Virus record (IMG/VR): IMGVR_UViG_3300045988_134116
DNA from: a virus
Strand: one strand, 5' to 3'
DNA length: 35,444 bases
The stretch's first letter is position 1. The number at the start of each line of letters is the position of its first letter. This document shows, one piece after another, positions 1 through 35,444 of the stretch. The notes beneath the pieces are model-generated. The model did no database searches and was not told where the DNA came from. It saw only the letters and a list, made by a program, of their open reading frames with translations. A program made the position numbers and the translations under genes.

Positions 1-92
1 CATTATTCAATCATTTGCACATTTGCACATTCGCACATTTGCACATTGATTAAGCTCATTAAACTCATAACTCATTAAACTCATAACTCATT
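1..92. repeat. Right half of intercistronic octamer-array element IOE-1 (continues from 35318..35444 across the circular junction), followed by a 2 x 16-nt direct repeat
   Basis: Tandem ATTTGCAC/ATTCGCAC octamers at 12-47. TCATTAAACTCATAAC occurs at 56-71 and 72-87 and ends 5 nt before the ATG at 93. Positions 1-55 are identical to 35390-35444. Confidence 0.85.
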
Positions 93-569: not shown

Positions 570-758
570 ATGTGCGAATGTGCAAATGTGCAAATGTGCG
601 AATGGTCGCCTTTGTACGCTGAGTAATTAAAGCATCATTCAATCATTCTCACATTTGCACATTCGCACATTGATTAAGCATTTGCACATTGAGTAATTAA
701 AACATCATTCAATCATTCGCACATTTGCACATTTGCACATTTGCACATTAACAACCCC
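570..758. repeat. Intercistronic octamer-array element IOE-2 (forward core, plus a second partial core)
   Basis: The left arm is tandem AATGTGCR octamers starting right after the stop codon. The core is GGTCGCCTTTGTACGCTGAGTAATTAAAGCATCATTCAATCATT. The right arm is YGCACATT octamers running up to the ATG at 759. Confidence 0.9.
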
Positions 759-1220: not shown

Positions 1221-1230
1221 GAAAGGAAGA

Positions 1231-7464: not shown

Positions 7465-7596
7465 CGCCTATGGCGAATGTGCAAATGTGAGAATGTGCAA
7501 ATGTGCAAATGATTGAATGCATTTGTAAATGCGCGTACAAAGGCGACCATTTGCACATTTGCACATTCGCACATTTGCACATTAAAAAAACATACT
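7465..7596. repeat. Intercistronic octamer-array element IOE-3 (reverse core)
   Basis: Left arm GAATGTGCAAATGTGAGAATGTGCAAATGTGCAAATG. The core ATTGAATGCATTTGTAAATGCGCGTACAAAGGCGAC is inverted relative to IOE-2. Right arm CATTTGCACATTTGCACATTCGCACATTTGCACATT. Confidence 0.9.
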
Positions 7597-15119: not shown

Positions 15120-16391
15120 ATGGCATATAAATTAAAGTGGTATTTAGATTTAAGGCGTAAGGACGAACAAGGGAAAGGGCGGCTTTGTATCGTTATTTAC
15201 AATCGTGGAACGTCGGCAATGCTGAGCACGGGGGTGATGTTGCGCGAGGGAGAGTTTGTGAACGGTAGGGTGGTGGGCGCGCCCATGGCGGCACAGCTGA
15301 CGCAGTTGCTGCGACTGAAAATGGCAAAGGTGCAATTGACTGTTGAAGAGGTGGCGTGCTTTAATGATGTTCAAGCAATGAGGGCAAGCGAGATTAAGGC
15401 GGCTTTGCTCGATCGGCTGGAGTTGAATGGGAATGGGGGTGAGGCCGTTGGAGAGGAGAAACAGGAGGAAGCGCGTTTTTTGCCGTTTGCTGAAACGTTT
15501 GTGAGTCGGTGTAAGAAGGAAAGAACGGCGGGCGTGTATAAAATGACTTTACAGAAGTTGAGGAAGTTTTGTAAGTTGGAGGAGTTGTGCTTTAAAGATG
15601 TGACGGTGGGGTGGCTGAAGGATTTTGAGGTTTGGATGGCTGACACCTGCAGCACGAACACGCGGGGCATACACTTTCGCAATATTCGTGCCGTGTTTAA
15701 TGCTGCAATAGATGAAGAGGTGATACCGGCCGAAATGTATCCTTTTAGGCGATTTAAGATAAAGAAGGAGGAAACGATGAAACGCTCGCTAAGGTTGGAG
15801 GATTTGAGGCGGTTGATGCGTTACCCTTGCGAAGAGTGGCAAAAGAGGTATGTCGACCTTTTTATGCTTTCGTTTTATCTGGCGGGCATTAATATGATTG
15901 ACCTCATGGAGTTGCCTCCGCTGAATGAGAGTGGCGTGATTGAATACAGGCGGAGCAAAACGGGGGTTGTGTGTCGGCTGACGGTTCCACCTGAAGCGCT
16001 GGAGATTATTGAGCGTTATAAGGGGGTGAAACGTTTGCTTTATTTTGGCGAGCGTTTGAGTGGTGGCGTTGAGGCGTGGAAGGGTTTCCTTCGTAACGTG
16101 AATGACGGGCTGCAACGTGTTGGTCCGTCGTGTTATGTGTACGTAAAGCATAAGGGCAAACGGGCGAAAGAACGGGTGAAAGTGTATAGCGGTTTGTTTC
16201 CCGATCTTACCTCCTATTGGGCGCGCCACACGTGGGCAACGTTGGCCTCAGAACTTGACGTGCCTGATGCAGTGATAGATGCTGCTTTAGGTCACAAGTC
16301 GCCCTATCCAATGGCCGACATATATATAAGGCGAAACGCTAAGAAGGTAGATGAAGCCGTGAGGCGCGTGATTGATTATGTAAGGGGGTAA
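15120..16391 (+). CDS. int: Tyrosine-type site-specific integrase
   Basis: 423 aa. The C-terminal catalytic region has SYWARHTWATLA (HxxR), LGHKS and ADIYIRR (catalytic Tyr). The gene is adjacent to the tRNA-fragment attP. Confidence 0.9.
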   Translation: MAYKLKWYLDLRRKDEQGKGRLCIVIYNRGTSAMLSTGVMLREGEFVNGRVVGAPMAAQLTQLLRLKMAKVQLTVEEVACFNDVQAMRASEIKAALLDRLELNGNGGEAVGEEKQEEARFLPFAETFVSRCKKERTAGVYKMTLQKLRKFCKLEELCFKDVTVGWLKDFEVWMADTCSTNTRGIHFRNIRAVFNAAIDEEVIPAEMYPFRRFKIKKEETMKRSLRLEDLRRLMRYPCEEWQKRYVDLFMLSFYLAGINMIDLMELPPLNESGVIEYRRSKTGVVCRLTVPPEALEIIERYKGVKRLLYFGERLSGGVEAWKGFLRNVNDGLQRVGPSCYVYVKHKGKRAKERVKVYSGLFPDLTSYWARHTWATLASELDVPDAVIDAALGHKSPYPMADIYIRRNAKKVDEAVRRVIDYVRG

Positions 16392-18384: not shown

Positions 18385-18629
18385 TGCTGCAAGCGCAAGA
18401 GCGAGAGCAAGACTCAAACGACAAAAGAGCCAAGCAGAAGCGCGAACAGTGGTAATGCTGTGAGCGAAGCGTCAGGAGGCGGCCCTTGGGGTGTGTGCAG
18501 CGGCACATGTAGAACGGCTGAGGGCTGAATGCTGCAAGCGGTTGCGGTGTGCTGAATGGCGATGTTGATGAATGGCGAAAGAAACGACAAAATAACAAAA
18601 CAACAAACAAACTAAAAACGGAAAACGAT

Positions 18630-18890
18630 ATGAACATTTTAGATAAAGCGCTGAAGGTGGCGAAGTGTGCGGCCTGTGCAGCCGTTGTGCTGACGGGTTT
18701 TTATTACGCCAGCCGTATGGATTACGAGGACGCGGTGTTGAACGAAATGAAGAACAATGGTACTTACTACGCCATGAGTCAGGAACACCCCGATTGGGAC
18801 GAGCATCACATGGTCGAAGTATACAACCAATGGAAGCTGCAGCGCGAGGAGGAAACGCGCGCGATGCGTAAGCGTTACGATGGTCGTTAG
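18630..18890 (+). CDS. Small membrane-anchored hypothetical protein
   Basis: 86 aa from the ATG at 18630, with the N-terminal hydrophobic segment AKCAACAAVVLTGFYYA. Confidence 0.45.
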   Translation: MNILDKALKVAKCAACAAVVLTGFYYASRMDYEDAVLNEMKNNGTYYAMSQEHPDWDEHHMVEVYNQWKLQREEETRAMRKRYDGR

Positions 18891-23979: not shown

Positions 23980-24306
23980 ATGATACCCATGTTAAAAGAC
24001 GTACTGACATTTCTTTTTTACGCCACGTCCGTATATGTCGTGCTATGGCTCACGTATAAGTTCGGCTTCTATCGAGCCGAAGAGTCAATGGCCGATGAAG
24101 TGGCGCGCCTTCGACAATCGCGTTGGAAAGAAGGCTACACGATTGGTCGTGAACAAGGATACACAAGAGGTCGTGATCGCGGCCACAAGGAAGGCTATCG
24201 TGAAGGTTACGCGAAGGGCCGTGCCGAGGGCTATGACGACGGCCGACGCTATGAAGCTATCACGCATCATAACGAGGAGGAGATTAAACGACAATTGAAG
24301 TTGTAA
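23980..24306 (+). CDS. Membrane-anchored protein with EGY/GR repeats
   Basis: 108 aa. The N-terminal TM is VLTFLFYATSVYVVLWLTYKFGF, followed by the repeats EGYTIGREQGYTRGRDRGHKEGYREGYAKGRAEGYDDGRRYE. Confidence 0.5.
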   Translation: MIPMLKDVLTFLFYATSVYVVLWLTYKFGFYRAEESMADEVARLRQSRWKEGYTIGREQGYTRGRDRGHKEGYREGYAKGRAEGYDDGRRYEAITHHNEEEIKRQLKL

Positions 24307-24357
24307 AGGCACTTGATAATGACACAATTTATTTGTATCTTAGTACTGGTCCAGAGT

Positions 24358-24507
24358 TAATGTGCGAATGTGCGAATGTGCAAATGTGCGAATGGTCGCC
24401 TTTGTACGCTGAGTAATTAAGACATTATTCAATCATTTGCACATTTGCACATTCGCACATTTGCACATTGCCCACGCATTTGCACATTAGCATATTAAAA
24501 AATAACA
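24358..24507. repeat. Intercistronic octamer-array element IOE-4 (forward core)
   Basis: Left arm AATGTGCGAATGTGCGAATGTGCAAATGTGCGAATG. Core GTCGCCTTTGTACGCTGAGTAATTAAGACATTATTCAATCATT. The right arm is TGCACATT/CGCACATT octamers. Confidence 0.9.
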
Positions 24508-24780
24508 GTGACGCGACGACGAATTAACCTCAGCGTGCCGCCCGAGCTATATCGAGAGCTGGAGCGCATACGCAAGACTTATCGCTTTAGTACGACGTGC
24601 GAGATGTGCGTCGTACTTTTGCGTGTATATGCGCGTATGGTGGCTGAGGCTGAGGCTACTTCCACCACTGACGATGATGAGGACTACATCGCGGCCACCT
24701 TTGAGCGCATGGCCACCTCTATGCGCACTCCTTCTAACACCATACCTACCGTGCGCCACCACCGAAGGAGGATTGAATAA
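24508..24780 (+). CDS. Ribbon-helix-helix (CopG/Arc-like) DNA-binding protein
   Basis: 90 aa with a GTG start. RRINLSVPPELYRELERIRK is a typical RHH N-terminal strand-helix. It is the first gene of the packaging cluster. Confidence 0.55.
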   Translation: MTRRRINLSVPPELYRELERIRKTYRFSTTCEMCVVLLRVYARMVAEAEATSTTDDDEDYIAATFERMATSMRTPSNTIPTVRHHRRRIE

Positions 24781-24794
24781 TATTTCGTAAGACT

Positions 24795-25133
24795 ATGGCT
24801 AAAGACAAAGACTACAAGCGAATGATACACACGCGCCACTGGTTGGAACTAAGGCGCATGGTACTCACGGCTCACCCTCTGTGCCAACGTTGTGAGGCTG
24901 AGGGCCGCACGACGGCTGCTACTGAGGTGCATCACGTGCGCCCAGTCGAAGAGGGTACGACCGCGAGGGAGAAGGAGCGGCTCATGTTTGATGCACACAA
25001 CCTCCGCGCCCTCTGCCACGACTGCCACGTGCTGACGCACACAGAGATAGGCCGCTCTGGCCGTAAGGCGAATGCCGAACGCAAGGCGCGGCAGGCCGAA
25101 AGCGTTAACAAACGCTTCTTTGGCGACGAGTGA
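24795..25133 (+). CDS. HNH endonuclease (terminase-associated)
   Basis: CQRCEAEGR...EVHHVRPV...HNLRALCHDCHVLTH are the HNH/zinc motifs. The gene lies upstream of terS and terL, as in HK97-like cos phages. Confidence 0.85.
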   Translation: MAKDKDYKRMIHTRHWLELRRMVLTAHPLCQRCEAEGRTTAATEVHHVRPVEEGTTAREKERLMFDAHNLRALCHDCHVLTHTEIGRSGRKANAERKARQAESVNKRFFGDE

Positions 25134-25148
25134 AGCGCCCAAAAGTAG

Positions 25149-25210
25149 CCGAAAACGTACCGAAACGACCGAAAAGCGTACAGAAAACGGCCGGAAACGT
25201 ACCAAAACAG
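25149..25210 (+). promoter_or_regulatory. Candidate cos / TerS-recognition repeats (helically phased CCGAAAACG-type units)
   Basis: About six units (CCGAAAACGTAC, CGAAACGAC, CGAAAAGCGTAC, AGAAAACGG, CCGGAAACGTAC, CAAAACAG) start every 10-11 nt. G-runs and T-runs follow at 25256-25345. The region lies between the HNH gene and terS. Confidence 0.35.
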
Positions 25211-25381
25211 AGCAAACGAAGCCTGCCCTCATCACCAATGGCGCTCCCATTCACATGGGGGGCATGTTTTTTTAAGGGGTGGGGGGTGGCGTTAAACCCC
25301 GCCCAAACCCTTTTTTTTGCGCGAGCATTTTTTTCGATTTATGGAACTTTGGGCAATTCAACACCCTTAAACAATAATTAA

Positions 25382-25527
25382 TAAATGTGCGAATGTGCAA
25401 ATGTGCAAATGTGCGAATGATTGAATGATGTTTTAATTACTCAGTGTGCAAAGGCGACAATTTGCACATTTGCACATTTGCACATTGACCACGCATTTGC
25501 ACATTCTCACATTAACACATTGATAAA
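25382..25527. repeat. Intercistronic octamer-array element IOE-5 (reverse core)
   Basis: Left arm AATGTGCGAATGTGCAAATGTGCAAATGTGCGAATG. Reverse core ATTGAATGATGTTTTAATTACTCAGTGTGCAAAGGCGAC. The right arm of octamers runs to the terS ATG. Confidence 0.9.
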
Positions 25528-25875
25528 ATGGCACGCACCACAAAACAATGGTATGCCCGCATCACCAAGGCACTCAAAAAGTCGGGTACTTATAACACCA
25601 GCCTCGAAATGCAGATACAATCGTTGGCAGGAGCTATGCGCACGCTCGAACTCGCCACTGATGAAATTGACAGCCTCGACACCACCGTCGTGTGGGAGGA
25701 GACACGCTACGGCCGCAAGATGATGCCGCACCCCGTGTTTAAAATTCAGCGCGACGCACAAGCCTCCGTCACGCGACAGATGAAGCAGTTACAACTCACC
25801 ACTGAGGAGTTGACCACCGACCAGAGTTCCGACCCATTGATAGACCTAACCCAAAAGCTCATTAATGAACAGTAG
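25528..25875 (+). CDS. terS: Terminase small subunit (P27-family-like)
   Basis: 115 aa and immediately upstream of terL. ...RYGRKMMPHPVFKIQRDAQASVTRQMKQLQLT is consistent with the P27 family. Confidence 0.7.
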   Translation: MARTTKQWYARITKALKKSGTYNTSLEMQIQSLAGAMRTLELATDEIDSLDTTVVWEETRYGRKMMPHPVFKIQRDAQASVTRQMKQLQLTTEELTTDQSSDPLIDLTQKLINEQ

Positions 25876-26068
25876 TTTAATGTGCGAATGCTTAATCAAT
25901 GTGCAAATGTGCGAATGTGCAAATGTGCAAATGATTGAATAATGTTTTAAATACTCAGCGTACAAAGGCGACCATTCGCACATTTGCACATTTGCACATT
26001 TGCACATTGATTAAGCATTTGCACATTGATTAAGCATTACCACATTATCACATTAGCACATTATCAGA
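25876..26068. repeat. Intercistronic octamer-array element IOE-6 (reverse core, extended right arm)
   Basis: The left arm includes AATGCTTAATCAATGTGC. Reverse core ATTGAATAATGTTTTAAATACTCAGCGTACAAAGGCGAC. The right arm has GCACATTGATTAAGC twice, then CACATTAT/CACATTAG units. Confidence 0.9.
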
Positions 26069-27775
26069 ATGACCGAAGAAGAAGCCCACCGCTACCGAGA
26101 GGAGAAGCAGCGCGTATCGCGTTCGCTCACTGCTAAATCGTTGGAGTCGTACCACCTTGAGGCGGTCGACCCTCGGCTCTACGTGTACGTATCAATGGTG
26201 CGCGACAGCCCCACCGAGCATAACCTTTGGGAGCAGTTGGCCGTTGAGCGTTTCCTGCGTATGGTGAAGCGTTATGGGCTTGACGCTCGCAAGGTGCGCC
26301 GCTTCTACCTCTTCTACGAGTCGCTCTACTTTCCTGGCAAGGAAGGCATGCAGCACTACAAGTTGACGCCCGTACAGTGCTTCCAGTTCGCGGCCGTTTA
26401 TGGATTTTGGGAAAAGGGGCGTCGCATCGTGCGTGAGGTATGTCTGTTCGTCCCCCGAAAGTTTTCGAAGACTACCTCAGGTGCTGCCTTCCCCCTTTAC
26501 GACCTTTTCTTTGGCGACGCCAACGCCGAGTGCTACTTTGGCGCCAACTCTTACGACCAAGCGAAGAAAGGCTTTAACGTCTTGCGCGGCTGCGTGCGTA
26601 GGCTCGACCCGCGCGGCTTACGCTATACGGTGAATGAAGACGTGATTAAGAGCCGACGCCAAGACCGCACGGCCTTTGCTCAGTGTCTGACAGGCAACAG
26701 CCGCACAAAGGACGGATTGAACGCCTCGACCGTCTTAATCGACGAATACTCCCAAGCGCGCACGAATGAGCTACTTACCGTGCTTACTACCTCTATGGGC
26801 GTTAGGCAGAACCCCCTTACGGTGATCATCACCACCGCGAGCGACGTGTTTGAAGGTCCATTCTACTCCAAGTTGCAAGGCTACAAACGTCTGCTACTGG
26901 GCGAGGTGGACGACGACAGCGTATTTGCCCACCTCTTTGAACCCGACGTTGACGACCCCGAAGACCAACCCTCAACGTGGCGCAAGGTCCACCCCCACAT
27001 GGGCGTGACCGTTAGCCTCGAATTTTACGAAGCCGAATATCGTGCAGCACGTCGCGACGGTGCGGAGGCGATGTTGGCCTTTCGCACGAAGTTGCTCAAC
27101 GTCTATGCCGAACAGCAGCAGCGCTCATGGATAACGGCCACCCTCGCCAACGACATCATGCGTCCCTTCACGCTCGACGCGATCAAAGGCCGTCCCGATG
27201 CAATGGTGGCTATCGACTTGAGCGAGAGTGACGACTTCTCGGCCGTGACGACTGGCTTCTACTCGCCCGAAGAGAAGTCGTTCACCTTCCACACGGTCTA
27301 CTTCTTCCCCGATGAAGCCCTGGCGGGCCACCCCAACGAACGCCTTTACCGCAAGTGGGCCGCCGAGGGCCACCTCACGCTGACGCAAGGCCCTGTCATC
27401 AATTACCGCACGATCGTCGACTACGTGTTGCGCGTCAACCGCTCCGTGCGCATACTCTCTATTGGTTACGACCCTTGGAAGAGCCAAGAACTTATCAACA
27501 TGTTGGCTGCATCAGGCGCGCGTGACGTGTTGCGCGGAGTGAAGCAGACGTATGGCAACTTTACCGCCCCCGTCCAATCCTTTGAGCATGGCTGCAAGAC
27601 GGGGCATATCTTTATCAATCCTAACCCGATTAACGCCTACTGCTTTGGCAATGCCATACTCGACACTGACAACCTCGGCAACTCTAAGCCCATTAAGCGC
27701 GCTCGCTATCAAAAGATTGACGGACTCATAACGATGCTCATGTGCTTGAGACTGTTTATAGATTATGAGCGGTAA
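26069..27775 (+). CDS. terL: Terminase large subunit
   Basis: 568 aa. It has a Walker A-like region (VPRKFSKTTSGA), a DE box (VLIDEYSQ) and a C-terminal nuclease domain (AIDLSESDDFSA...IGYDPW). Confidence 0.9.
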   Translation: MTEEEAHRYREEKQRVSRSLTAKSLESYHLEAVDPRLYVYVSMVRDSPTEHNLWEQLAVERFLRMVKRYGLDARKVRRFYLFYESLYFPGKEGMQHYKLTPVQCFQFAAVYGFWEKGRRIVREVCLFVPRKFSKTTSGAAFPLYDLFFGDANAECYFGANSYDQAKKGFNVLRGCVRRLDPRGLRYTVNEDVIKSRRQDRTAFAQCLTGNSRTKDGLNASTVLIDEYSQARTNELLTVLTTSMGVRQNPLTVIITTASDVFEGPFYSKLQGYKRLLLGEVDDDSVFAHLFEPDVDDPEDQPSTWRKVHPHMGVTVSLEFYEAEYRAARRDGAEAMLAFRTKLLNVYAEQQQRSWITATLANDIMRPFTLDAIKGRPDAMVAIDLSESDDFSAVTTGFYSPEEKSFTFHTVYFFPDEALAGHPNERLYRKWAAEGHLTLTQGPVINYRTIVDYVLRVNRSVRILSIGYDPWKSQELINMLAASGARDVLRGVKQTYGNFTAPVQSFEHGCKTGHIFINPNPINAYCFGNAILDTDNLGNSKPIKRARYQKIDGLITMLMCLRLFIDYER

Positions 27776-27863
27776 GAAAAGCGTATCAATTTGTAGTCCT
27801 TTGCCGTTAATACGGATATTAGTATCTTTGCATTGTTCTAATAACGAAAAACAGGAAGAAACA

Positions 27864-28274
27864 ATGAAAGAAGTAAAAGCAATTATCGAGCGTTCCTCAG
27901 AGGGGCGCTATAGTATTTACATGGACGACGATACGCTATCTTATCTTATAACGGCTGAGGGTGCTACGCTTGATGAAGCTAAGGACGACTTCATGACTTA
28001 TTACAACGAGACAAAAGAATATTTCAAGAGCCATAACGAAGCATTTGAAGAAGTAGAGTTTGACTTCTGTTACGATATGGCCTCTTTCTTACAGCACTAT
28101 GCCTATGCGTTTACGTTAGCAGGTCTTTCACGCATTACTGGCGTCAATCAAGGGCAATTATCACATTATATTAATGGGACTTCACGCCCCTCAGCACGCA
28201 CTATTGAAAAGATAGAAAACGGCATAAGCAGTTTTGCGCAAACACTGTCGGGTGTTCATTTCGTACGTCCGTAA
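27864..28274 (+). CDS. Orphan HicB-like antitoxin-family protein with a C-terminal HTH
   Basis: 136 aa from the ATG at 27864. EGRYSIYMDDD..ITAEGATLDEAKDDF is HicB-like, and LAGLSRITGVNQGQLSHYINGTSRPS is an XRE-type HTH. It has the same architecture as 16744..17157, but no hicA is adjacent. Confidence 0.6.
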   Translation: MKEVKAIIERSSEGRYSIYMDDDTLSYLITAEGATLDEAKDDFMTYYNETKEYFKSHNEAFEEVEFDFCYDMASFLQHYAYAFTLAGLSRITGVNQGQLSHYINGTSRPSARTIEKIENGISSFAQTLSGVHFVRP

Positions 28275-28355
28275 CCTCCCCCCATTCAGGTACGCTGTAT
28301 TTCATATAGTTATTTGACACATCGCGCCCGCCACCTGAGGGTGCAAAACAATCAA

Positions 28356-28390
28356 GCGCCCCACCATGTAACAATGGTTGGGCGCTTTTA
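28356..28390 (+). terminator. Rho-independent terminator
   Basis: Stem GCGCCCCACCAT / ATGGTTGGGCGC (11 of 12 bp) followed by TTTTA. Confidence 0.6.
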
Positions 28391-28520
28391 CTTTAACACG
28401 AAAAATAGAAAAATGAAAAAAGTGGGATAAAAAAGATACACCGCGTTTCGCAACGGGGGGTATCATTGATTATTATGAGTTGTTTAATTAACAGTTACCT
28501 TGCAAAGATAGCAATAAAAA

Positions 28521-28543
28521 GCCACGCGGCAAGCGCGCGTGGC
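28521..28543 (-). terminator. Terminator of the minus-strand gene 28581..28793
   Basis: An 8-bp stem GCCACGCG / CGCGTGGC. On the minus strand it is followed by TTTTTATT. Confidence 0.55.
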
Positions 28544-28580
28544 AAAATAAATGTGTCTAAAAACGTTTAATTTAATGGCA

Positions 28581-28793
28581 TTAAAAGGTGAATTCCAAAT
28601 CAGGAATGCTGCGCCCTTCTGCCTCTTCTAACTTCTTCATTTCGTTGTAACACGCATCTAAGTCGGCCTTAGCTTCGGCTACTGTGTTGCCATATCCTGC
28701 AAGGCCAAAGTGCGCGAACTCTTTATCAACGTAACAAGCAAAACGGCCGTCAGTATCCTTTTCGACCGTCACTGTAACTTTCTCCTTTTTCAT
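28581..28793 (-). CDS. Orphan HicB N-terminal-domain-like small protein
   Basis: 70 aa. VTVEKDTDGRFACYVDKEFAHFGLAGYGNTVAEAKADLDACYNE matches the HicB/UPF0150 fold pattern. It is on the opposite strand with no adjacent toxin gene. Confidence 0.55.
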   Translation of the reverse strand: MKKEKVTVTVEKDTDGRFACYVDKEFAHFGLAGYGNTVAEAKADLDACYNEMKKLEEAEGRSIPDLEFTF

Positions 28794-28814
28794 ATTGTAT
28801 TAACTGATGTTTCG

Positions 28815-29061
28815 GATTTAGCAAGGGCGGGCTGAAAGCCCAATGTAGCACATAGCCCAGGGCAAGCGAAGCGACACCCTGGGTTACGGATTGCCATAGT
28901 ATTGACGCCCTGAAAGGGCAAAAGCATTCAATGTTGGAAATAGATATAAAGCTTTTGCCCTTACAGGGCGCGGAGACTCTACTATGCGGGAACCCAGGGT
29001 GTCGCTTCGCTTGCCCTGGGCTATGTGCTACATTGGGCTTTCAGCCCGTCCTTGCTAAATC
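28815..29061. repeat. 247-nt near-perfect palindrome (71-nt arms with 1 mismatch, plus an imperfectly palindromic interior)
   Basis: 28815-28885 is the reverse complement of 28991-29061 except for one base (G/A at GCAAGG[G]CGGG). The interior also pairs (GCCCTGAAAGGGCAAAAGC / GCTTTTGCCCTTACAGGGC), leaving an apical loop of about 25 nt. Confidence 0.9.
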
Positions 29062-29249
29062 TGGAACTTGAGTATTAATGTTTTACCGCTTTGTCTAAAC
29101 CAACTGATACCTTGAGAAATCTTTCGGTGAACATTGTTTTAAACACTGCAAATATAGCAACAATGTCACATTATTCCACCCAACTCTCACTTTTTTCAAA
29201 GAAAAACGCCCCAAGGTGGTACCACCTACACACCTTTTGCGCGTAGGGT

Positions 29250-30464
29250 ATGAACGTATTACGCAGACTATTCAAGATAAAACGCAGCAGCGAGGGTGCT
29301 AACTCATCGCCAGAGGGTAGGACTGTACGCGCGGGGGCTTTGCCGCTTTTCACCTCCGCAGCGGCTGATCCCTTGGCCGTTAGCACCGTCTATCGCTGCG
29401 TGCGTTTACTTTCAGAGAGTGTGGCCAACTTGCCCCTCCGTTATATGAAGCTAAAGGGCGGCATCTTCGTCGACGACCGCCAGTCGCGCCTCCACTACCT
29501 ATTGAGCGTGCAACCCAACGAGCTTTACTCCGCATTCGACTTCTGGGCGCAAGCCGTGCAGCAGATGTTGCTGACGGGTAATGCTTATATCGTGCCGCAG
29601 TACTCGCCCTCGCTTGAGGTAGATCGCCTTGTGCTTTGCCAACCTGGCACAGTGAGTCACGACACCATTAATCGCACCTACACGGTAATGGACATGACCA
29701 ACCGCCTTAGCGGTACCTTCGCGGAGGAAGAAGTGATACACCTCAAAAACCTCACCATCGACGGACAACAAGGCATCAGCACCTTAGCCTTTGCGCGCCT
29801 TACTACGCAGATAGCCTCTACAGGTGATAATGAGACGCTCAACCGATTTGCCAATGGAGGCAACGTGCGCGGCATCGTAGGCAACGACACGAGCGTGCGC
29901 GGATTTGGCGACTATCAAGACGATGAACTGGCCAAGACGGCCACCGACCTCGACCAATCATTCTCAGAAGGCCGCAAGATAGTCAGCCTACCAGGGCAAG
30001 TAAAGTTCAACCAACTCTCGCTCTCAAGCACCGACATGCAATTTCTCGAGAGCCGAAAGTTTACGGTGCGTGAGCTTTGTCGCTTCTTCGGGGTTCACCC
30101 CTCATTCGTCTTTGACGACACGAGCAACAACTACAAGAGTGCCGAAATGGCCAACGTTGCTTTCCTCTCCAACACGCTCAACCCCCTACTCCGTAAGATA
30201 GAGAGCGAACTCCACCGCAAGCTCATCGAGCCTTCGCTCTGTTGTGAGCGCCGCTTCGAATTCGACCGTCGCAGCCTCTATGCGTGCGACCTCGCAAGCC
30301 GCGTGCAGTACCAGACGCAGACGATAGCAGCAGGTATCTACACCGTCAACGATTGGCGACGTGCCGAGAACATGCCGCCCGTCGAGGGAGGCGACCTCCC
30401 ATTGGTCAGCGCCAACTTGAAGGGACTGAACGAAATGGGGGCTAACTCAACCACCGACAACTAA
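29250..30464 (+). CDS. Portal protein (HK97 family)
   Basis: 404 aa. LLTGNAYIV, QFLESRKFTVRELCRFFGVHPSFV and the position between terL and the prohead protease fit HK97-type portals. Confidence 0.85.
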   Translation: MNVLRRLFKIKRSSEGANSSPEGRTVRAGALPLFTSAAADPLAVSTVYRCVRLLSESVANLPLRYMKLKGGIFVDDRQSRLHYLLSVQPNELYSAFDFWAQAVQQMLLTGNAYIVPQYSPSLEVDRLVLCQPGTVSHDTINRTYTVMDMTNRLSGTFAEEEVIHLKNLTIDGQQGISTLAFARLTTQIASTGDNETLNRFANGGNVRGIVGNDTSVRGFGDYQDDELAKTATDLDQSFSEGRKIVSLPGQVKFNQLSLSSTDMQFLESRKFTVRELCRFFGVHPSFVFDDTSNNYKSAEMANVAFLSNTLNPLLRKIESELHRKLIEPSLCCERRFEFDRRSLYACDLASRVQYQTQTIAAGIYTVNDWRRAENMPPVEGGDLPLVSANLKGLNEMGANSTTDN

Positions 30465-30606
30465 CACACATTATTAATATGCTAATGTGTTAATATGCTA
30501 ATGTGTTAATATGCTAATGGCTGCGCCACTCATTAACACATTAGCACATTCCCACATTAGCACATTCCCACATTAGCACATTAGCACATTAGCACATTTA
30601 CGCCTT
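30465..30606. repeat. Intercistronic octamer-array element IOE-7 (variant family: CTAATGTG/TTAATATG versus CACATTAG/CACATTCC)
   Basis: Left arm (TAATATGC TAATGTGT) x 2.5. Core TAATGGCTGCGCCACTCATTAA. The right arm is 8 tandem CACATTNN octamers ending 9 nt before the protease ATG. Confidence 0.9.
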
Positions 30607-31269
30607 ATGAATAAGCAATTACAATTCCACTCCTCAGGCACCGTCCACGTGCGCAGCCGCCAAGGCAGCGAGGGCGAGGGCGAAAGCCGCACCATTGAGG
30701 GATATGCCATTCTGTTCAACACGCCCTCTGCCCCACTGTGGGAGGACGAGGACGAAGTCGTGCGCGAACAGATTGCCCCCGAAGCCATAACGAAGGACCT
30801 ACTCGACGGCTGCGACATCAAGATGACCATGAACCACGACTTTGCCACATTGCTTGCACGCAGCAAGCGCGGAGAGGGTACGCTACAGTACGACATCGAC
30901 GAGCGGGGCGTCCACTTCTCCTTCGATGCGCCCAACACAGACGACGGCGACCGCGCGCTCGAACTCGTACGGCGTGGCGACATCGACGGCTGCTCCTTCA
31001 TGTTCTCTTGTTCGTACCGCACCCCCGACGTGACGAGCGAGACGACCAAAAACAAGGAGACGGGAAAGGCTGAAACGCTTTACACCATTCATGCTATTCG
31101 TGGCATCTACGACTTTACGCTCACGCCCATGCCCGCCTATCCCGACACGGAAGTAAACGCACGCGACCTGCGCGGATTGACTCCCGCCCCCTCAACAGAC
31201 AACGCTGCCGCCCTCCGCGTCGAGGAACAAGTAAAGGCCATGCGCAGCGAGGCAAAGCTATCACTTTAA
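30607..31269 (+). CDS. Prohead protease (HK97 family, S78)
   Basis: 220 aa. IEGYAILFNTPS, MNHDFATLLARS and LELVRRGDIDGCSFMF match the HK97 protease pattern. It lies between the portal and capsid genes. Confidence 0.8.
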   Translation: MNKQLQFHSSGTVHVRSRQGSEGEGESRTIEGYAILFNTPSAPLWEDEDEVVREQIAPEAITKDLLDGCDIKMTMNHDFATLLARSKRGEGTLQYDIDERGVHFSFDAPNTDDGDRALELVRRGDIDGCSFMFSCSYRTPDVTSETTKNKETGKAETLYTIHAIRGIYDFTLTPMPAYPDTEVNARDLRGLTPAPSTDNAAALRVEEQVKAMRSEAKLSL

Positions 31270-31307
31270 AGCATTAACCATTTAATAACAATTCATTCAT
31301 TACGATT

Positions 31308-32420
31308 ATGAACAAAAAACTTACGGTACGTCAAATCGTTGACAAATACCAAAAGAACTGCGCTCGCATCTCGGCCATTGCCGACCTCTGCGAGCAGGAA
31401 AAGCGCGAACGCACCCAGGCTGAGAGCGCAGAGTACGAAGCACTCGTGCGTGACAATGAGTTGCTCCGCATGCGTATGCAAGCTGAAGCCGCTCAAGCGC
31501 AGCAGAACCCCAACATTATTGCTGACGCCAATAAATTGGTGCGTGAGAACATGGAGGCTGGCCGACAGACACAAATCGTGTTTATGCGCGACCTCATGGT
31601 AGTGAGCGACGCTACTTCGGGCGGCATCATTCCGCTCAAGATACAAGACATTCTCGACCCATTGGTAGAGGGCTTAATCCTCGACAAGGTGGGTCTCCCC
31701 ATGCCTACAGGCTTGGCGGGTGATTACGTATGGCCCACTTACGAAGCCGTTGAGGCACAAATCCAAGGCGATGGCGTTGCGCTCACCGACACGAAGGTGA
31801 AACTCTCAAAGCTCACCGCTTCACCTCAGCGCATTGGCGTAGCCATTCCTGTAACGCGTCAGACGATTATCCAGACGGAGGGCATCATCGAAACGATTGT
31901 GAAGAAAGTAATGCCTCAGTCAGTAGCCATGTTGCTGAACAAGATCTTGTTCTCTACCACCAAGGCTACCGCGGCTACTACTTTGGTAGGCCCATTCGTG
32001 GCGAAGGCTGCTAAACCGATCGCACTGAGCGCTACTCCTACCTTTGCCGACTTCAACAATATGAAGGCAAAGGTGTTGGCCTCTGGCGTTGATGGTAGCA
32101 ACTTGTGCTGGGTTATGACACAAGCGCAGAAGGCCATTGCCGAAGCCACTCCTAAGGACGCGGGCTCTGGCATCATGGTATGTGAGAACGACCACATCGC
32201 GGGCCTCCCCGTCTTCTGCACTCACTACATTGGTGAAGGCTTTGTTGGTCTTGGCGACTGGCGCTACCAGCCCATGGGCATGTTTGGCGACATCTCGTTT
32301 ATCATCGACCCCTATAGCCAGGCTCGCAAGGATGCCGTTGACTTCGTACTCAACGTCAACTACGGCACGACTACGCTCCGCCCCGAAGCCTTTGCACTGG
32401 GCAAAGTCGCCTCTGCGTAA
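31308..32420 (+). CDS. Major capsid protein (HK97 fold)
   Basis: 370 aa. It has an N-terminal coiled-coil delta-like region, GGIIPLKIQDILDPL, and a C-terminal DWRYQPMGMFGDISFIIDPYSQARKDAVDFVLNVNYG. Confidence 0.85.
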   Translation: MNKKLTVRQIVDKYQKNCARISAIADLCEQEKRERTQAESAEYEALVRDNELLRMRMQAEAAQAQQNPNIIADANKLVRENMEAGRQTQIVFMRDLMVVSDATSGGIIPLKIQDILDPLVEGLILDKVGLPMPTGLAGDYVWPTYEAVEAQIQGDGVALTDTKVKLSKLTASPQRIGVAIPVTRQTIIQTEGIIETIVKKVMPQSVAMLLNKILFSTTKATAATTLVGPFVAKAAKPIALSATPTFADFNNMKAKVLASGVDGSNLCWVMTQAQKAIAEATPKDAGSGIMVCENDHIAGLPVFCTHYIGEGFVGLGDWRYQPMGMFGDISFIIDPYSQARKDAVDFVLNVNYGTTTLRPEAFALGKVASA

Positions 32421-32618
32421 ACGCTCGGCGAATGTGCAAATGTGTAAATGTGCAAATGTGCAAATGATTGAATAATGTTTTAATTACTCAGTGTACAAAG
32501 GCGACCATTCGCACATTCGCACATTCGCACATTTGCACATTAACCCAGCGTACAAAGGCGACCATTTGCACATTTGCACATTCTCACATTTGCACATTCT
32601 CACATTTACACATTTCCC
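32421..32618. repeat. Intercistronic octamer-array element IOE-8 (reverse core plus a second partial core)
   Basis: A left arm of AATGTGCA/AATGTGTA octamers. Reverse core ATTGAATAATGTTTTAATTACTCAGTGTACAAAGGCGAC. A right arm, then a partial core CCCAGCGTACAAAGGCGAC, then a second right arm running to the ATG at 32619. Confidence 0.9.
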
Positions 32619-33041
32619 ATGACCTATCTATACAAACCCCTCGCTCGCAAAAACTTTAAGACTGGCGAGAACATGTTCTACCCCGCGCCATTACCTGCGG
32701 CCGTTACCGACTTCGAACTCTTGGCCGCTGAAATCAGCGCGAAGTGTACCCTCACGCGTGCCGACGCTATGGGTGTGCTGAAAGAACTTGAGCGTCAAAT
32801 CCTCCACGCGTTGCTATCGGGTTACACCGTTCGCCTTGGCTCATTGGGGGCGTTTCGCCTTACAGCGAAGTCAGTAGGCGTTGAGACCAAAGACGATGTA
32901 AGCAGTCAACTCGTCAAGAAAGCTCGCGTGCGCTACGTGCCTTCGACGTGGATTAATAATAAGCTATTACTCCAGAACGTCGACTTTAAGAATGTCTATA
33001 AAGCCAATAAGAAGAAAACCGATAAAACGCAACAAGCATGA
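32619..33041 (+). CDS. HU-family-like DNA-binding protein (Bacteroidota HU-HIG type), paralog 1
   Basis: 140 aa from the ATG at 32619. LLAAEISAKCTLTRADAMGVLKELERQILHALLSGYTVRLGSLGAFRLT is an HU-like fold pattern. The 32574 start lies inside the repeat. Confidence 0.6.
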   Translation: MTYLYKPLARKNFKTGENMFYPAPLPAAVTDFELLAAEISAKCTLTRADAMGVLKELERQILHALLSGYTVRLGSLGAFRLTAKSVGVETKDDVSSQLVKKARVRYVPSTWINNKLLLQNVDFKNVYKANKKKTDKTQQA

Positions 33042-33415
33042 TTAAATTAGTAACACGTAGTATAAAGAGCTCACGCGACCAAAAGTGGCGCTACTTCCCC
33101 GCTATCAGCTATAGCGGCACTATCACGCGCGACAAACTTTGCGAGCGCATAAGCGAGTCCACCACCTTTACCCATGCCGACGTACTCACGGCCCTTTGTG
33201 CCTTTGAGGAGGCCATTGCCGAAAAGTTACAAAGTGGCGGTATGGTAAAGCTCGGCTCACTTGGCACATTCCGCACTACATTGCGTTCAAAAGGGGGCGA
33301 GATAAGCAAAGACGACGTAAGCGCGAAGAACATTCGCTCGCTCCACGTCGCGTTTCTTCCCTCAAGCACGCTCAACAAGCAACTGCAAGAGCAAGCACAG
33401 TACGCAATGTCGTAA
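33038..33415 (+). CDS. HU-family-like DNA-binding protein, paralog 2
   Basis: 125 aa with an ATGA overlap with paralog 1. KLCERISESTTFTHADVLTALCAFEEAIAEKLQSGGMVKLGSLGTFRTTL parallels paralog 1. Confidence 0.6.
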   Translation: MIKLVTRSIKSSRDQKWRYFPAISYSGTITRDKLCERISESTTFTHADVLTALCAFEEAIAEKLQSGGMVKLGSLGTFRTTLRSKGGEISKDDVSAKNIRSLHVAFLPSSTLNKQLQEQAQYAMS

Positions 33416-33442
33416 AAAACGCGCTCTGCGATGCGCTTCCTA

Positions 33443-33507
33443 CCTCTCGGTGATGGGTTTCAGACTTCTCGGTGAGGGGTTTTCAACTTCTCGGTGAGGG
33501 GTAACGG
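33443..33507 (+). repeat. Three tandem ~22-bp repeats CTTCTCGGTGAGGGGTTTTCAA
   Basis: Units lie at about 33444-33464 (CTCTCGGTGATGGGTTTCAGA), 33465-33486 and 33487-33507. They are flanked by the inverted CGCGCTC / GAGCGCG. Confidence 0.85.
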
Positions 33508-33583
33508 AGCGCGCGGAGAGCCACGTTTGTAATGAGAAGTCATGGAAATAGTAATCTTTAGAGACTAAGCACACATTCATATT

Positions 33584-33898
33584 ATGTCAGAAGTAGCCCT
33601 ATCCCTATTTAAAAAACACGTTCGCGCAGATGATTTTAGCGACGACGACGACTACCTACAGCAATGCCTTGATGCCGCTGAGGCTTCAGTGGTGCGCGCT
33701 ACAAACCGCACACTCGATGAGCTAAAGCTAATGGGCGGTGGGTCACTGCCCGCCCCCTTGGTGCAAGCTATTCTGTTGGTAGGAGGCTCGGCTTACGACC
33801 ACCGCGAAAACGATGCTCCGCAGCAGTACAGTGAAATCCCGTGGGGCGCTTCATCTATCATCAAACAATACAGAAGACTATGCGTGCGGGAGGAATGA
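33584..33898 (+). CDS. Head-tail connector protein (gp6-like)
   Basis: 104 aa. LFKKHVRADDFSDDDDYLQQCLDAAEASVVRATNRTL matches the gp6-like connector pattern. Confidence 0.7.
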   Translation: MSEVALSLFKKHVRADDFSDDDDYLQQCLDAAEASVVRATNRTLDELKLMGGGSLPAPLVQAILLVGGSAYDHRENDAPQQYSEIPWGASSIIKQYRRLCVREE

Positions 33899-34200
33899 GA
33901 TATCACTTACAACTCTTTCGCCCCGTTCAGACTACGAACGAATATGGCGAAGAGCAAACCACTTACACCCCGACCCGAACGATCTGGGCCGAGCGTGTCA
34001 AGTGGGCGGGCAATCGGAGTGAAGAGGTGGGCGAACACTTTGCCGCTTACATCGTGACCTTCCGCATACGCGATGTACACCCCATTGGTGAGGGGTGGCG
34101 CGTGCAGCTCATGGGCGAACACCTCTACACCGTTATGGCCATTGAGCCTAACCGCAGTAAGGGAATGCTTTCGCTCCTCTGTCAGCGCGTCAACGTGTGA
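33895..34200 (+). CDS. Head-closure / head-tail adaptor protein (SPP1 gp16-like)
   Basis: An ATGA overlap start at 33895. MRYHLQLFRPVQTTNEYGEEQTTYTPTRTIWAERV...FRIRD...YTVMAIEP is typical of adaptor proteins. Confidence 0.65.
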   Translation: MRYHLQLFRPVQTTNEYGEEQTTYTPTRTIWAERVKWAGNRSEEVGEHFAAYIVTFRIRDVHPIGEGWRVQLMGEHLYTVMAIEPNRSKGMLSLLCQRVNV

Positions 34201-34388
34201 TGAGATTAGGTGTTAGGTGTTAGGAATTAGTGATTAGGGATTAGGGGGTTAAAAGGTCACCTTATGCCTCGCTCCCCACAAAAACAAACTTTTTAGCCCC
34301 CTAACCCCAACCTAACCCCAACCCCTAACCCCTAATCACTAATCCCTAACACCTAATCACTAATCACTAATCCCTAACACCTAAAGTA
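34201..34388. repeat. Intercistronic heptamer-array element IOE-9 (variant family: TTAGGNN / NNCTAAY)
   Basis: Left arm ATTAGGTG TTAGGTG TTAGGAA TTAGTGA TTAGGGA TTAGGGG. The unique core is about 50 nt. The right arm has about 12 heptamers (CCCTAAC, CCCTAAT, CACTAAT, ACCTAAT) ending 4 nt before the ATG at 34389. Confidence 0.9.
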
Positions 34389-34766
34389 ATGAAAACAGTA
34401 TTAAGCGCAGGCACTGCCGTCTACGAGGTGCTGAGCGAAAGGTTAGCTGATAAAGTAACGAAAGTATTTCCCGTCGTGACAGATGAGGCCGTGCTTCCTT
34501 ACGTCTGCTATCATCGCGAGGCCCTCGAAACGGCCGTTGCCAAAAATGCCAAAAGTGCCGATACGGCCACAATCGTAGTGGACTGTTATGCTGCTACTTA
34601 CAATGGCTCTGTGGCGTTGGCTGAGGCCGTACGCGAAGCGCTTGACAACGTGAGCATTACCACCTCGGCAGGGTTAACCGTCCGTTCTTCCTTCTTAGTT
34701 GATTCCGCTGAGTCGTGGACGGACGATGCTTACTTGCAGTCGCTCTCCTTTAAACTCCGTTGCTAA
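34389..34766 (+). CDS. Tail-completion / tail terminator-like protein (DUF3168-like)
   Basis: 125 aa. VFPVVTDEAVLPYVCYHRE...ATIVVDCYAATYNGSVALAEAVREAL resembles DUF3168 neck proteins. It lies in the head-tail joining block. Confidence 0.5.
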   Translation: MKTVLSAGTAVYEVLSERLADKVTKVFPVVTDEAVLPYVCYHREALETAVAKNAKSADTATIVVDCYAATYNGSVALAEAVREALDNVSITTSAGLTVRSSFLVDSAESWTDDAYLQSLSFKLRC

Positions 34767-35317
34767 TGGATAACGACAACGAGAAAGCGCTGCAGACCTT
34801 CCAGCGCGAATTGGCAAAGCTTTACGCCAGCCTCTCGCCTAAGGAGCAGCGCAAGGCCATTGCCGCCTCGATGAGGCGCGAGGCCAATCGCTTGAAAAAG
34901 GCCGCACAGACGAGGGTACGCACTTCGGGCCTCTCGGCCAAAACGGGGGTGGACAAGGGCGTCTACGCTCGCATCTACCCCAAGCGCTACGGCACGGGCT
35001 TTATGGTGAGCGTTAAGCCCCACGGAGCGAAGAAGGGCATACATACCAACCGCCAGGGCAAGCAGAAGCCTGTACTCCTATTTGCCGAGGAAGGTACGAA
35101 ACAGCGCAACGTGGGCCGTCGCAAGGGCAGCGCGCAATATCGCCAAGGCCGCTTCGCTCAGAAGAAGTGGCGCGACTATAGCCGCTCAGGCCATAGCACA
35201 GGGCGTATGTCTCCGTATAAGTTCCTCGCCATGACCGAACAGACCGAAGCGGCGGGCATCGAGCAGCGCCTTTGGAATGACTTCGAGCGCAACGTCGATA
35301 AGGCGGCGAAAAAGTAA
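34766..35317 (+). CDS. Neck/tail component (HK97 gp10-like), basic
   Basis: 183 aa from the ATG at 34766 (TAATG overlap). It is the last gene before the major tail gene across the junction. The assignment is by synteny and loose pattern only. Confidence 0.4.
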   Translation: MDNDNEKALQTFQRELAKLYASLSPKEQRKAIAASMRREANRLKKAAQTRVRTSGLSAKTGVDKGVYARIYPKRYGTGFMVSVKPHGAKKGIHTNRQGKQKPVLLFAEEGTKQRNVGRRKGSAQYRQGRFAQKKWRDYSRSGHSTGRMSPYKFLAMTEQTEAAGIEQRLWNDFERNVDKAAKK

Positions 35318-35444
35318 GTTTAATCAATGTGCAAATGTGCGAATGTGCGAATGTGCAAATTGTCGCCTTTGCACGCTGAGTAATTAAGACATTATTCAAT
35401 CATTTGCACATTTGCACATTCGCACATTTGCACATTGATTAAGC
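35318..35444. repeat. Left half, core and start of the right arm of intercistronic element IOE-1 (forward core)
   Basis: Left arm AATCAATGTGCAAATGTGCGAATGTGCGAATGTGCAAAT. Core TGTCGCCTTTGCACGCTGAGTAATTAAGACATTATTCAATCATT, then the right arm. Positions 35390-35444 duplicate 1-55. Confidence 0.9.

Follow-up and report, generated by a model that had tools for sequence, protein, structure and literature searches.

Junctions between the late genes of a temperate Prevotella phage carry copies of a palindromic repeat family of the host lineage

The IMG/VR record IMGVR_UViG_3300045988_134116, a stretch of 35,444 nucleotides (nt) referred to here as the window, represents a Prevotella phage, identified by PHROG and Pfam scans of the window proteins as an HK97-like temperate siphovirus, in which nine junctions between genes are occupied by elements formed by two inverted arrays of short tandem repeats on either side of a core. 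These elements are copies of an intergenic palindromic repeat family of the host lineage (the human-gut Prevotella sp. UMGS287, and Alloprevotella), that is, a host feature carried by the phage, and they are not phage-specific regulatory sites. The family is apparently new to description. Bases 1-55 of the window repeat its last 55 (35390-35444), so that the genome, which is circularly permuted, is a circle of 35,389 bp, and the element at 35318 to 92, which spans the junction of the two ends, is a single element. The late genes lie on a single strand throughout, and the principal genes of the window are:

93-569, major tail protein (MTP)
4051-7464, tape measure protein (TMP)
15120-16391, integrase, the only recombinase encoded in the window
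24795-25133, HNH
31308-32420, major capsid protein (MCP)
further named genes: amidase, terS, terL, portal, prohead protease, head-tail adaptor, head closure and tail terminator

The repeat units of the elements belong to at least five unrelated families, which follow a single layout and keep their arms complementary:

F1 (main family), octamers AATGTGCR / YGCACATT
F2, 16-nt double unit TAATATGC/TAATGTGT
F3, heptamers GATTAGG / CCTAATC
F4, units AAGTTGAC/GTCAACTT
F5, 9-mer GAGTTTAAT/ATTAAACTC

The core sequence GTCGCCTTTG adjoins the left arm at J1, J2, and J4 (orientation A), and is reverse-complemented at J3, J5, J6, and J8 (orientation B). The nine elements and the empty site of a tenth junction are arranged as follows:

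J1, 35318 to 92 across the junction, plus strand, between tail protein p185 and the major tail protein: F1 nested in the apex of an F5 element; F5 left-arm remnant TTAATC 35320-35325; left arm of 4 x AATGTGCR 35326-35357; core AATTGTCGCCTTTGCACGC...CAATCATT, orientation A, 35358-35404; right arm of 4 x YGCACATT 35405-35436; unpaired G-poor tail 56-92, plus strand, up to the ATG at 93, the preceding 40 nt being 3% G
J2, 569-758, plus strand, between the major tail protein and the amidase: F1, orientation A, with a partial core duplication; left arm 569-600, overlapping the TAA stop; core 601-647; first right array 648-690; partial core copy 691-717; second right array 718-749; tail 750-758
J3, 7465-7596, plus strand, between the tape measure and the distal tail protein (Dit): F1, orientation B, variant core; left arm 7476-7507; core 7508-7551; right arm 7552-7583; A-rich tail 7584-7596
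J4, 24358-24507, plus strand, between the last early gene and a 90-aa open reading frame (ORF): F1, orientation A; left arm 24359-24390; core 24391-24437; right arm 24438-24469; distal degenerate units 24470-24497; tail 24498-24507
J5, 25382-25527, plus strand, between the HNH/cos-like spacer and terS: F1, orientation B; left arm 25384-25415; core 25416-25462; right arm 25463-25486; spacer and three units 25487-25521; tail 25522-25527
J6, 25876-26068, plus strand, between terS and terL: F1, orientation B, extended stem; outer pair 25879-25897 with 26009-26027 (AATGCTTAATC with GATTAAGCATT); left arm 25898-25929; core 25930-25976; right arm 25977-26008; unpaired distal units 26028-26063
J7, 30465-30606, plus strand, between the portal and the prohead protease: F2, short core; left arm 30475-30519; core GCTGCGCCACT at about 30520-30530; right arm 30531-30598
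J8, 32421-32618, plus strand, between the major capsid protein and the first HU-HIG gene: F1, orientation B, with a partial core duplication; left arm 32431-32462; core 32463-32509; first right array 32510-32541; partial core copy 32542-32566; second right array 32567-32614
J9, 34201-34388, plus strand, between the head closure and the tail terminator: F3; left arm 34204-34246; core 34247-34297; right arm, nearly without G, 34298-34384
J10, 1221-1230, plus strand, between the amidase and the next gene: empty site of the tenth junction

The original prediction, made from the letters alone, had placed nine elements of inverted tandem arrays at these positions, and all of them were recovered by Tandem Repeats Finder, a scan for inverted repeats, and direct reading of the sequence. 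Tandem Repeats Finder detected arrays of period 7, 8, or 16 at nine of the nine places, and the motif AATGTGCR has 69 occurrences over both strands, versus 3.97 +/- 2.24 in shuffled sequences, with only two matches (11538 and 19711) outside the elements. The inverted-repeat scan returned arms of 33-55 nt that are 77-98% complementary (41 nt and 98% at J1), and the lengths of the elements total 1,502 nt, or 4.2% of the genome, in agreement with the earlier estimate of about 1.5 kb and 4%. The layout of tandem array, asymmetric core, and inverse array is as described, as is the proximity of the right arms to the next gene, given that the arrays of the window finish 4-13 nt before the start codon. 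Other parts of the description need to be amended. The left arm was said to begin 0-12 nt after the upstream stop, which is the case in seven of the nine elements, but not in J4, where it begins (24359) 52 nt past the stop at 24306, or in J5, where it begins (25384) 250 nt past the HNH stop and 2 nt past an 83-aa ORF that has no family match. The core of the main family, described as an asymmetric sequence of about 42 nt, is indeed asymmetric, but is found in both orientations and at lengths of 42-47 nt. The AATGTGCR octamer is the unit at J1-J6 and J8, while J7 (F2) and J9 (F3) use other units and J1 is nested in an element of F5, a family seen complete in L019, whose right arm forms the (CTCATTAAACTCATAA)n tail of J1. 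Extra repeat units belong to the downstream arm in every case, and the hexamer CACATT is conserved even in unpaired distal units.

Strong hairpin potential beside the downstream start had also been proposed, and this was upheld by the RNA folding of five elements (J3-J7), which gave predicted stems of approximately 36-50 bp with free energies (dG) between -46 and -84 kcal/mol and z-scores between -6 and -13. The individual values are -65.2 kcal/mol (z -8.4) for J3, -69.5 (z -9.8) for J4, -57.8 (z -6.2) for J5, -84.3 (z -12.9) for J6, and -46.1 (z -7.1) for J7, where the sense strand has periodic A.C mismatches.

The strongest evidence on the nature of the elements comes from the host chromosome. 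A prophage of Prevotella sp. UMGS287 (locus L147), nearly identical to the phage of the window, encodes HNH and terS proteins that are, respectively, 99% and 98% identical to those of the window, which names this species as the host lineage. In the same species, composite elements of the family lie between the genes of RadC and an FeS-assembly protein, of PorP/SprF and a sulfatase-modifying enzyme, and of TGT and Lon, with one more after GldL. The elements are thus not peculiar to phage late-gene junctions, since the same family sits between host housekeeping genes. The alternative which the original prediction had itself named, of ordinary copies of a known host repeat family with no link to phage junctions, largely describes what was found, in that the family is spread over the host chromosome, but the family is not a known one. 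The joint between arm and core, (AATGTGCR)n-AATKGTCGCCTTTG, occurs nine times in 80 kb of UMGS287 loci and eight times in 99 kb of Alloprevotella loci, and is common to the phage, UMGS287, and Alloprevotella, while being essentially absent beside the arrays of other Bacteroidota. At least 120 matches to this joint were retrieved from metagenome contigs, many of them labelled human gut, and among the matches listed, 103 of 120 loci have no homologue of any of the 21 window proteins that were tested. Families F2, F4, and F5 are also present in host loci, as inverted arrays. In a search of one genome per species, bare arrays gave at least 120 matches, and among the matches listed almost all are from Bacteroidota, isolates included; these taxa include Prevotella sp. 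UMGS287, an Alloprevotella metagenome-assembled genome (MAG), Prevotellamassilia, a bin labelled Christensenella, Chitinophagaceae (including the isolate Danxiaibacter flavus), Flavobacterium, and Mucilaginibacter. Clusters of AATGTG/CACATT-type arrays have a density of 0.23 per kb in the phage and about 0.10 per kb around selected non-phage loci, the latter being a rough host estimate. One further count was not relied on. Of 34 one-sided chromosomal cases, 33 have the strict GTCGCCTTTG joint on the side of the stop, but this bias arises in part because many host cores are themselves imperfect palindromes whose second joint is degenerate, and because numerous matches represent one locus seen in several samples.

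The layout had not been recognized as a described class, and this impression held. The window has no match in Rfam 15 at the gathering score, and the matches at E<=1 are only to eukaryotic miRNA-precursor models, sub-threshold and on both strands, as would be expected of generic long hairpins. Literature searches by array string and by topic found no description of a paired-array element, and the nearest published analogue of the arrays alone is the TAACTGA heptamer repeat (PMC4679880).

Two other repeats were observed in the same surroundings. A unit of about 125 nt (R125) is present as an inverted doublet at 28803-29073 of the window (126-nt arms, 85% complementary, 19 nt apart), which includes small hairpins such as GGGCTGAAAGCCC and has no Rfam match; R125 is also found in UMGS287 chromosomal loci (L058, L076, L127, and L146), in the "Christensenella" bin, and at J1 of L008, L035, and L036. 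The bin labelled "Christensenella sp. UBA1685" (L041, L045, L063, L085, L089, and others) has intergenic regions packed with classical, GTAG-tagged repetitive extragenic palindromic (REP) hairpins, for example CGTGTAGAGCGCGACGTTTCAAACGTCGCC, which are bracketed by AATGTGCR / YGCACATT arrays in the outermost position, adjoining the genes. The label of this bin is doubtful, given that its loci have about 58% G+C and one of them carries an HU-HIG-like gene.

Within the window, no array was found at 14.7-24.3 kb, which upholds the predicted absence from the lysogeny and early region. The contigs L027 and L029 (IMG/VR contigs 157159 and 141690) are from other phages that have only the lysogeny module in common with the window, and these carry main-family elements together with half-elements (left arm plus GTCGCCTTTG, with the right arm missing), one of which lies directly after the homologue of window 18549-18890. 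The restriction to the late region is therefore not valid for all phages.

A scan of IMG/VR for (AATGTGCR)3 retrieved 37 loci on 24 contigs, of which 21 align to the window at 88-99% identity. The alleles of each junction in the window and its relatives were compared by anchoring on the conserved flanks, with the following result:

J1: F1 nested in F5, six; F5 with the 125-nt repeat, three; F5 alone, one
J2: F1, five; F2, seven
J3: F1 in orientation A, five; F1 in orientation B, three
J4: F1 in orientation A, nine; F1 in orientation B, two; F2, two; none, two
J5: F1, four; F2, six; empty, five
J6: F1 in orientation A, five; F1 in orientation B, three; F2, six
J7: F2, thirteen
J8: F1 in orientation B, nine; F1 in orientation A, one; F2, four
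J9: F3, eight; empty (23-nt spacer), five; filled length 188-441 nt

On the question, raised originally, of whether related phages keep elements at the same junctions, six junctions are filled in every relative (8-14 relatives), but family, orientation, and copy number change, and J5, J9, and J10 can be empty. The J10 site, empty in the window, is filled by an inverted F4 array in L001, L002, L008, L019, L028, L035, and L036, with the core in both orientations. A core variant specific to J6, GAGTATTTAAAAC, is in orientation A in L004, L010, and L035, and in orientation B in the window and L032, which indicates that the core was inverted in place rather than replaced. Recombination between the 36-bp arms, or template switching from one to the other, accounts for this inversion. 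The outer ends of the elements are ragged, and both the number of units and the distal units differ between alleles. At J5 and J9, the spacer of the empty allele has been replaced, rather than cleanly excised, and no convincing target-site duplication was found at the empty alleles, the ends at J10 sharing AAG only. Taken together, the alleles document an extreme turnover, faster than that of the phage genes. A small extra ORF (start ATGAGTAATTATGTGGCC...) lies between the last early gene and the J4 position (window 24307-24357) in L004, L010, L014, L021, L023, and L032; two of these, L004 and L010, have the ORF but no element.

The arrays obey a strand rule with respect to the genes. At the host loci, a C/A-rich array precedes the start in 61 cases, versus 13 with a G/T-rich array, and a G/T-rich array follows the stop in 58 cases, versus 10 with a C/A-rich one; in a second, independent metagenome set the corresponding counts are 116 versus 15 before the start, and 148 versus 17 after the stop. 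The rule extends to unrelated repeat units, with C exceeding G in 26 of 34 arrays before starts, and G exceeding C in 21 of 31 arrays after stops. As an inverted repeat is identical on both strands, this means that the order G-rich then C-rich exists, and the reverse never does. In the genome set, the distances from array to start are concentrated at 4-16 nt. Across the phage family, the hairpin foot is at a median of 3 nt past the stop and 19 nt ahead of the start, and the 40 nt before the starts at element junctions contain 7% G, versus 26% genome-wide. At the variable position of the unit, Watson-Crick pairing is 0.62, versus 0.41 when shuffled, and an insertion in one arm of J6 has a matching partner in the other. 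Together with the complementary arms kept by at least five unit families, these features suggest that pairing counts for more than sequence. A hairpin at -21 left translation unreduced in Prevotella bryantii, whereas weak structure located at the start site lowered it five-fold, and the leaders of Bacteroidetes are low in GC, with S1 binding to unstructured leaders having been proposed (PMC3155529). The succession of a hairpin and a G-poor tail of about 20 nt fits exactly the tolerance seen in P. bryantii.

These observations point to a host repeat comparable to REP and to the bacterial interspersed mosaic element (BIME), which would supply a stop-proximal hairpin and a G-poor leader for initiation without Shine-Dalgarno pairing, a reading that has about an even chance of being right. 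Of this, the sequences show the anatomy, the distribution, and the dynamics; effects on expression are inferred. Since the late genes are on one strand, each element would be transcribed and would form a hairpin of 36-50 bp, with its foot about 3 nt past the upstream stop, followed by some 10-55 nt of unpaired G-poor units up to the next start. Such a hairpin may act in the manner of REP/BIME as a block to 3' exonucleases, and would be a likely entry point for RNase III, by which the late operon might be cut into sub-messages of differing stability. The predicted stems of the five elements folded reach the size of an RNase III substrate (near-perfect double-stranded RNA of some two turns or more), with transcription assumed from the gene order, and RNase III processing or mRNA stabilization, both of which had been suggested originally, is plausible. 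The strand rule could reflect the need of Bacteroidota ribosomes, which do not use Shine-Dalgarno pairing, for an unstructured leader. Turnover proceeds through repeat slippage and inversion between the arms, and, we infer, through copying from the many chromosomal copies during the prophage state. A broader form of this idea, which is unlikely as a whole, would make paired inverse arrays a general and as yet undescribed operon punctuation of the Bacteroidota, in which the hairpin joins stop and next start, a G-poor leader bound by S1 or another single-strand RNA binder replaces Shine-Dalgarno initiation and coupling, temperate phages borrow the device to set the ratios of their late proteins, and slippage and inversion provide an evolvable dial.

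A number of observations weigh against a function of the elements as RNA hairpins. The empty alleles at J5, J9, and J10 occur in phages with flanks up to 99% identical, which makes the individual elements dispensable, and the flipping of cores in place leaves the core without a strand-specific role in the phage. The arms of the host elements covary weakly at the variable position (0.61 versus 0.54, not significant). The wobble-pair signature of a sense-strand RNA hairpin was sought with a negative and, if anything, reversed outcome, in that the more stable fold is that of the antisense strand in 63 of 91 alleles, and single stem mismatches in the sense strand are A.C in 101 cases, versus G.U in 52. 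Nothing favours the sense RNA fold in particular, and the complementary arms could reflect how the elements arise. Co-directional placement of the flanking genes (78 of 84) equals the 90% background of the same loci and is uninformative; an apparent co-directional enrichment (98:2:4) was dropped as evidence on this account.

A serious rival, and a possible one, is that the elements are selfish or neutral repeat DNA, useless to phage and host, spread by slippage, palindrome template switching, gene conversion, or a single-strand transposase of the type associated with REP (REP-associated tyrosine transposase, or RAYT). The strand rule might then be a filter imposed by translation, through which copies that place a G-rich array before a start were removed because they harm initiation. 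The presence or absence of elements, the family swaps, and the copy-number changes between near-identical phages are all as such DNA would produce, as is the nesting of one element in the apex of another (at J1, F1 or R125 in F5), and R125 is a second, unrelated host repeat that has entered the phage, and is found in both host bins. The cluster density of the phage is only about twice the rough value of the host, no wobble-pair signature marks selection at the level of the RNA, and the junction types equal the background. The six junctions that are never empty in 8-14 relatives are, however, difficult to reconcile with useless DNA, as is the contrast in the window between some 20 junctions of the early region with no elements and the nine of the late region. 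Neither a transposase nor a target-site duplication nor defined termini were found, the empty alleles being spacer replacements, and CACATT is conserved in unpaired distal units, where pairing cannot constrain it. That same conservation, together with the immateriality of core orientation in the phage, would suit arrays or cruciforms bound at the DNA level by a nucleoid protein, whether the HU-HIG paralogs, the putative ribbon-helix-helix (RHH) protein of 90 aa, or a host protein, for DNA condensation or late-gene repression. Proteins of the HU type have a preference for DNA that is distorted or cruciform, tandem repeats of 7-8 bp are bound by RHH proteins, as in the MetJ boxes and the omega heptads, and the two HU-HIG genes adjoin J8. 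This possibility is nevertheless improbable, on indirect grounds, as the same elements at host housekeeping junctions make a dedicated phage HU or RHH binder unnecessary, and at least five unrelated unit sequences with one layout argue against any single sequence-specific binder. The RHH assignment is itself unsupported, core loops of 40-130 nt disfavour the extrusion of cruciforms, and the strand rule relative to the genes would go unexplained.

Transcription signals, also suggested originally in the form of terminator structures, fare no better. The hairpin would be a terminator or attenuator, with the right array providing weak promoters through the resemblance of CACATTTG to the Bacteroidota -7 box TAnnTTTG, in the manner of a terminator-promoter cassette or an invertible switch. 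The main-family right arms do present TTTG every 8 nt on the sense strand, the array of the host locus L146 fills the whole gap from a terminator-like hairpin to the next ATG, and the cores are flanked by inverted repeats and flip, as in the invertons of Bacteroidales. No element, however, combines a hairpin with a T-run, the stems being followed by A-rich sequence, and a scan of 24000-35444 found 12 terminator-like sites, none of which coincides with an element, J2 and J3 being judged by reading of the sequence only. The 8-nt period is incompatible with the spacing of 19-21 nt between the -33 and -7 boxes, the cores that were read contain no TAnnTTTG, families F2, F3, F4, and F5 lack TTTG, left arms would fire antisense into the upstream genes, and a core of 42 nt is too short for a promoter and recombinase sites. 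Signals of this kind are quite improbable, and promoter boxes as the main role were rejected on reading the cores and arrays, for their wrong spacing and missing TA. Recombination boundaries that promote the exchange of late modules between phages, a further suggestion of the original prediction, might be expected from the way in which the elements split the late operon into functional blocks, and from the mosaic nature of the phage family, in which identity ranges from 81% to 99% along the genome. When 86 element-junction comparisons were set against 194 control comparisons, however, the identity change was 0.031 versus 0.032 (Mann-Whitney p = 0.43), which leaves this role very improbable indeed. 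Readings as Chi-like sites, DNA uptake sequences, Rho-loading sites, or CRP half-sites were also considered and rejected, being at odds with five unrelated families and with the short unpaired tails.

Among known systems, the comparison with REP-like sequences, made originally, is apt. The REP, BIME, and REPIN sequences of the Proteobacteria are likewise short intergenic palindromes present in many copies on the host chromosome, in either orientation, as mosaics, and variable among strains, and the high copy number typical of REP was found here in the housekeeping junctions of UMGS287 and Alloprevotella and in at least 103 non-phage metagenome loci. REP/BIME are transcribed with the flanking genes, and their hairpins, located by stop codons, stabilize upstream mRNA and modulate expression (PMC3733652 and PMC2817692). 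A REP, however, is a single imperfect palindrome of 20-40 nt with a GTAG or CGTC tag, mobilized by RAYT, whereas the arms of the present elements are tandem arrays of 7-9-mers (36 to more than 100 nt) in several unit families, with a strand-composition rule and no tag, and no RAYT was found, the host genomes having been covered in 8-kb pieces. The TAACTGA heptamer repeats, known from Beggiatoaceae, Cyanobacteria, and five Bacteroidetes, lie upstream of starts, and binding by S1, Csp, or CsrA-type proteins has been proposed (PMC4679880). These arrays, of the TAACTGA or long simple sequence repeat (LSSR) type, resemble the present ones in being tandem, oriented to the gene, ending a few nt before the start, and variable in copy number, but they are nearly always direct (one inverted case is reported), with no core or hairpin, whereas an inverse partner array and a core accompany the arrays, which have another unit, in all nine window elements and many host copies.

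Hairpins placed between phage genes have a parallel in phage T7, in which RNase III processing hairpins between cistrons set the ends and the stability of the messages. The T7 sites are, however, bipartite stems of unique sequence with an internal loop, not arrays, and are not common to the host, and cleavage of the hairpins here is a prediction. The start-associated sequence (SAS) and its extended form (ESAS) in the Cluster K mycobacteriophages are a repeated 13-bp motif just upstream of many starts, sometimes with an inverted repeat nearby; SAS is a single motif, not an array, and has no known counterpart on the host chromosome. Miniature transposable elements with inverted repeats (MITEs), such as Neisseria Correia, the enterobacterial repetitive intergenic consensus (ERIC), and BrickBuilt, are similarly non-coding and 100-200 bp in length, with inverted ends, and are found in both orientations, co-transcribed and strain-variable, but have unique terminal inverted repeats and a target-site duplication, neither of which was found here, and no insertion sequence related to the elements was seen in the phage. 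BrickBuilt of Porphyromonas gingivalis is a Bacteroidota MITE with tandem repeats (PMC4596501), although these are internal, whereas here they form the arms. The invertons of the Bacteroidales also have a segment between inverted repeats that takes both orientations in related genomes, but the segment flipped here is about 45 nt, with no recognizable promoter and no adjacent recombinase.

If the favoured account of a REP/BIME-like host repeat is true, the Bacteroidota, including the abundant Prevotella of the human gut, would carry hundreds of intergenic elements of an undescribed layout with a strict strand rule, and temperate phages would carry them too, which would offer a handle on operon gene expression in a phylum whose ribosomes ignore the Shine-Dalgarno sequence. 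Should the elements prove purely selfish, host repeats that colonize a prophage and turn over faster than its genes would still have been documented. The arm-core joint, being common to phage and host, could serve as a marker for linking the two in metagenomes, and the junctions bearing elements call for caution in annotation and assembly, as they are hypervariable, palindromic, and rich in repeats.

The remaining features of the window concern its genes and relatives. No near match to the late region was found in the GenBank phage collection. An Alloprevotella MAG (L052) encodes an integrase 81% identical to that of the window (15120-16391), so related phages or integration modules occur in Alloprevotella as well. 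Of the gene labels proposed originally, the two HU-like paralogs were confirmed as HU-HIG by a family scan, but the RHH label of the product of 24508-24780 (90 aa) is unverified, as sequence searches of PHROG, Pfam, and the PDB gave no match, and a single-sequence AlphaFold model has a predicted local distance difference test score (pLDDT) of 60, with a disordered N-terminus followed by three helices. The spacer between HNH and J5 (25134-25381), in which the 83-aa ORF is called, contains 10/21-nt repeats (CCGAAAACGTAC, 25149-25208) together with a hairpin that is rich in G/C and has T8 after it (about 25270-25320), is kept in the relatives, and is, from its sequence, a candidate cos or terS-binding region.

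The tail protein of 1,211 aa encoded at 9987-13622 has a collagen-like stretch (Pfam Collagen, residues 534-574), and its gene includes several in-frame tandem repeats of 9-45 nt (10272-10366 and 11598-11689). A 287-aa ORF at 2048-2911, with no Pfam match, contains a 15-nt tandem repeat (2762-2848), and the alignments of most relatives skip from about 2060 to about 2924, which gives this region the appearance of a genome-specific insertion. Between the helix-turn-helix (HTH) gene and the portal gene (28275-29250), about 1 kb is almost without plus-strand ORFs, and a minus-strand ORF of 70 aa (28581-28793), with no Pfam match, has its own terminator-like hairpin at 28543-28521; this stretch has a moron-like layout and is variable among the relatives.

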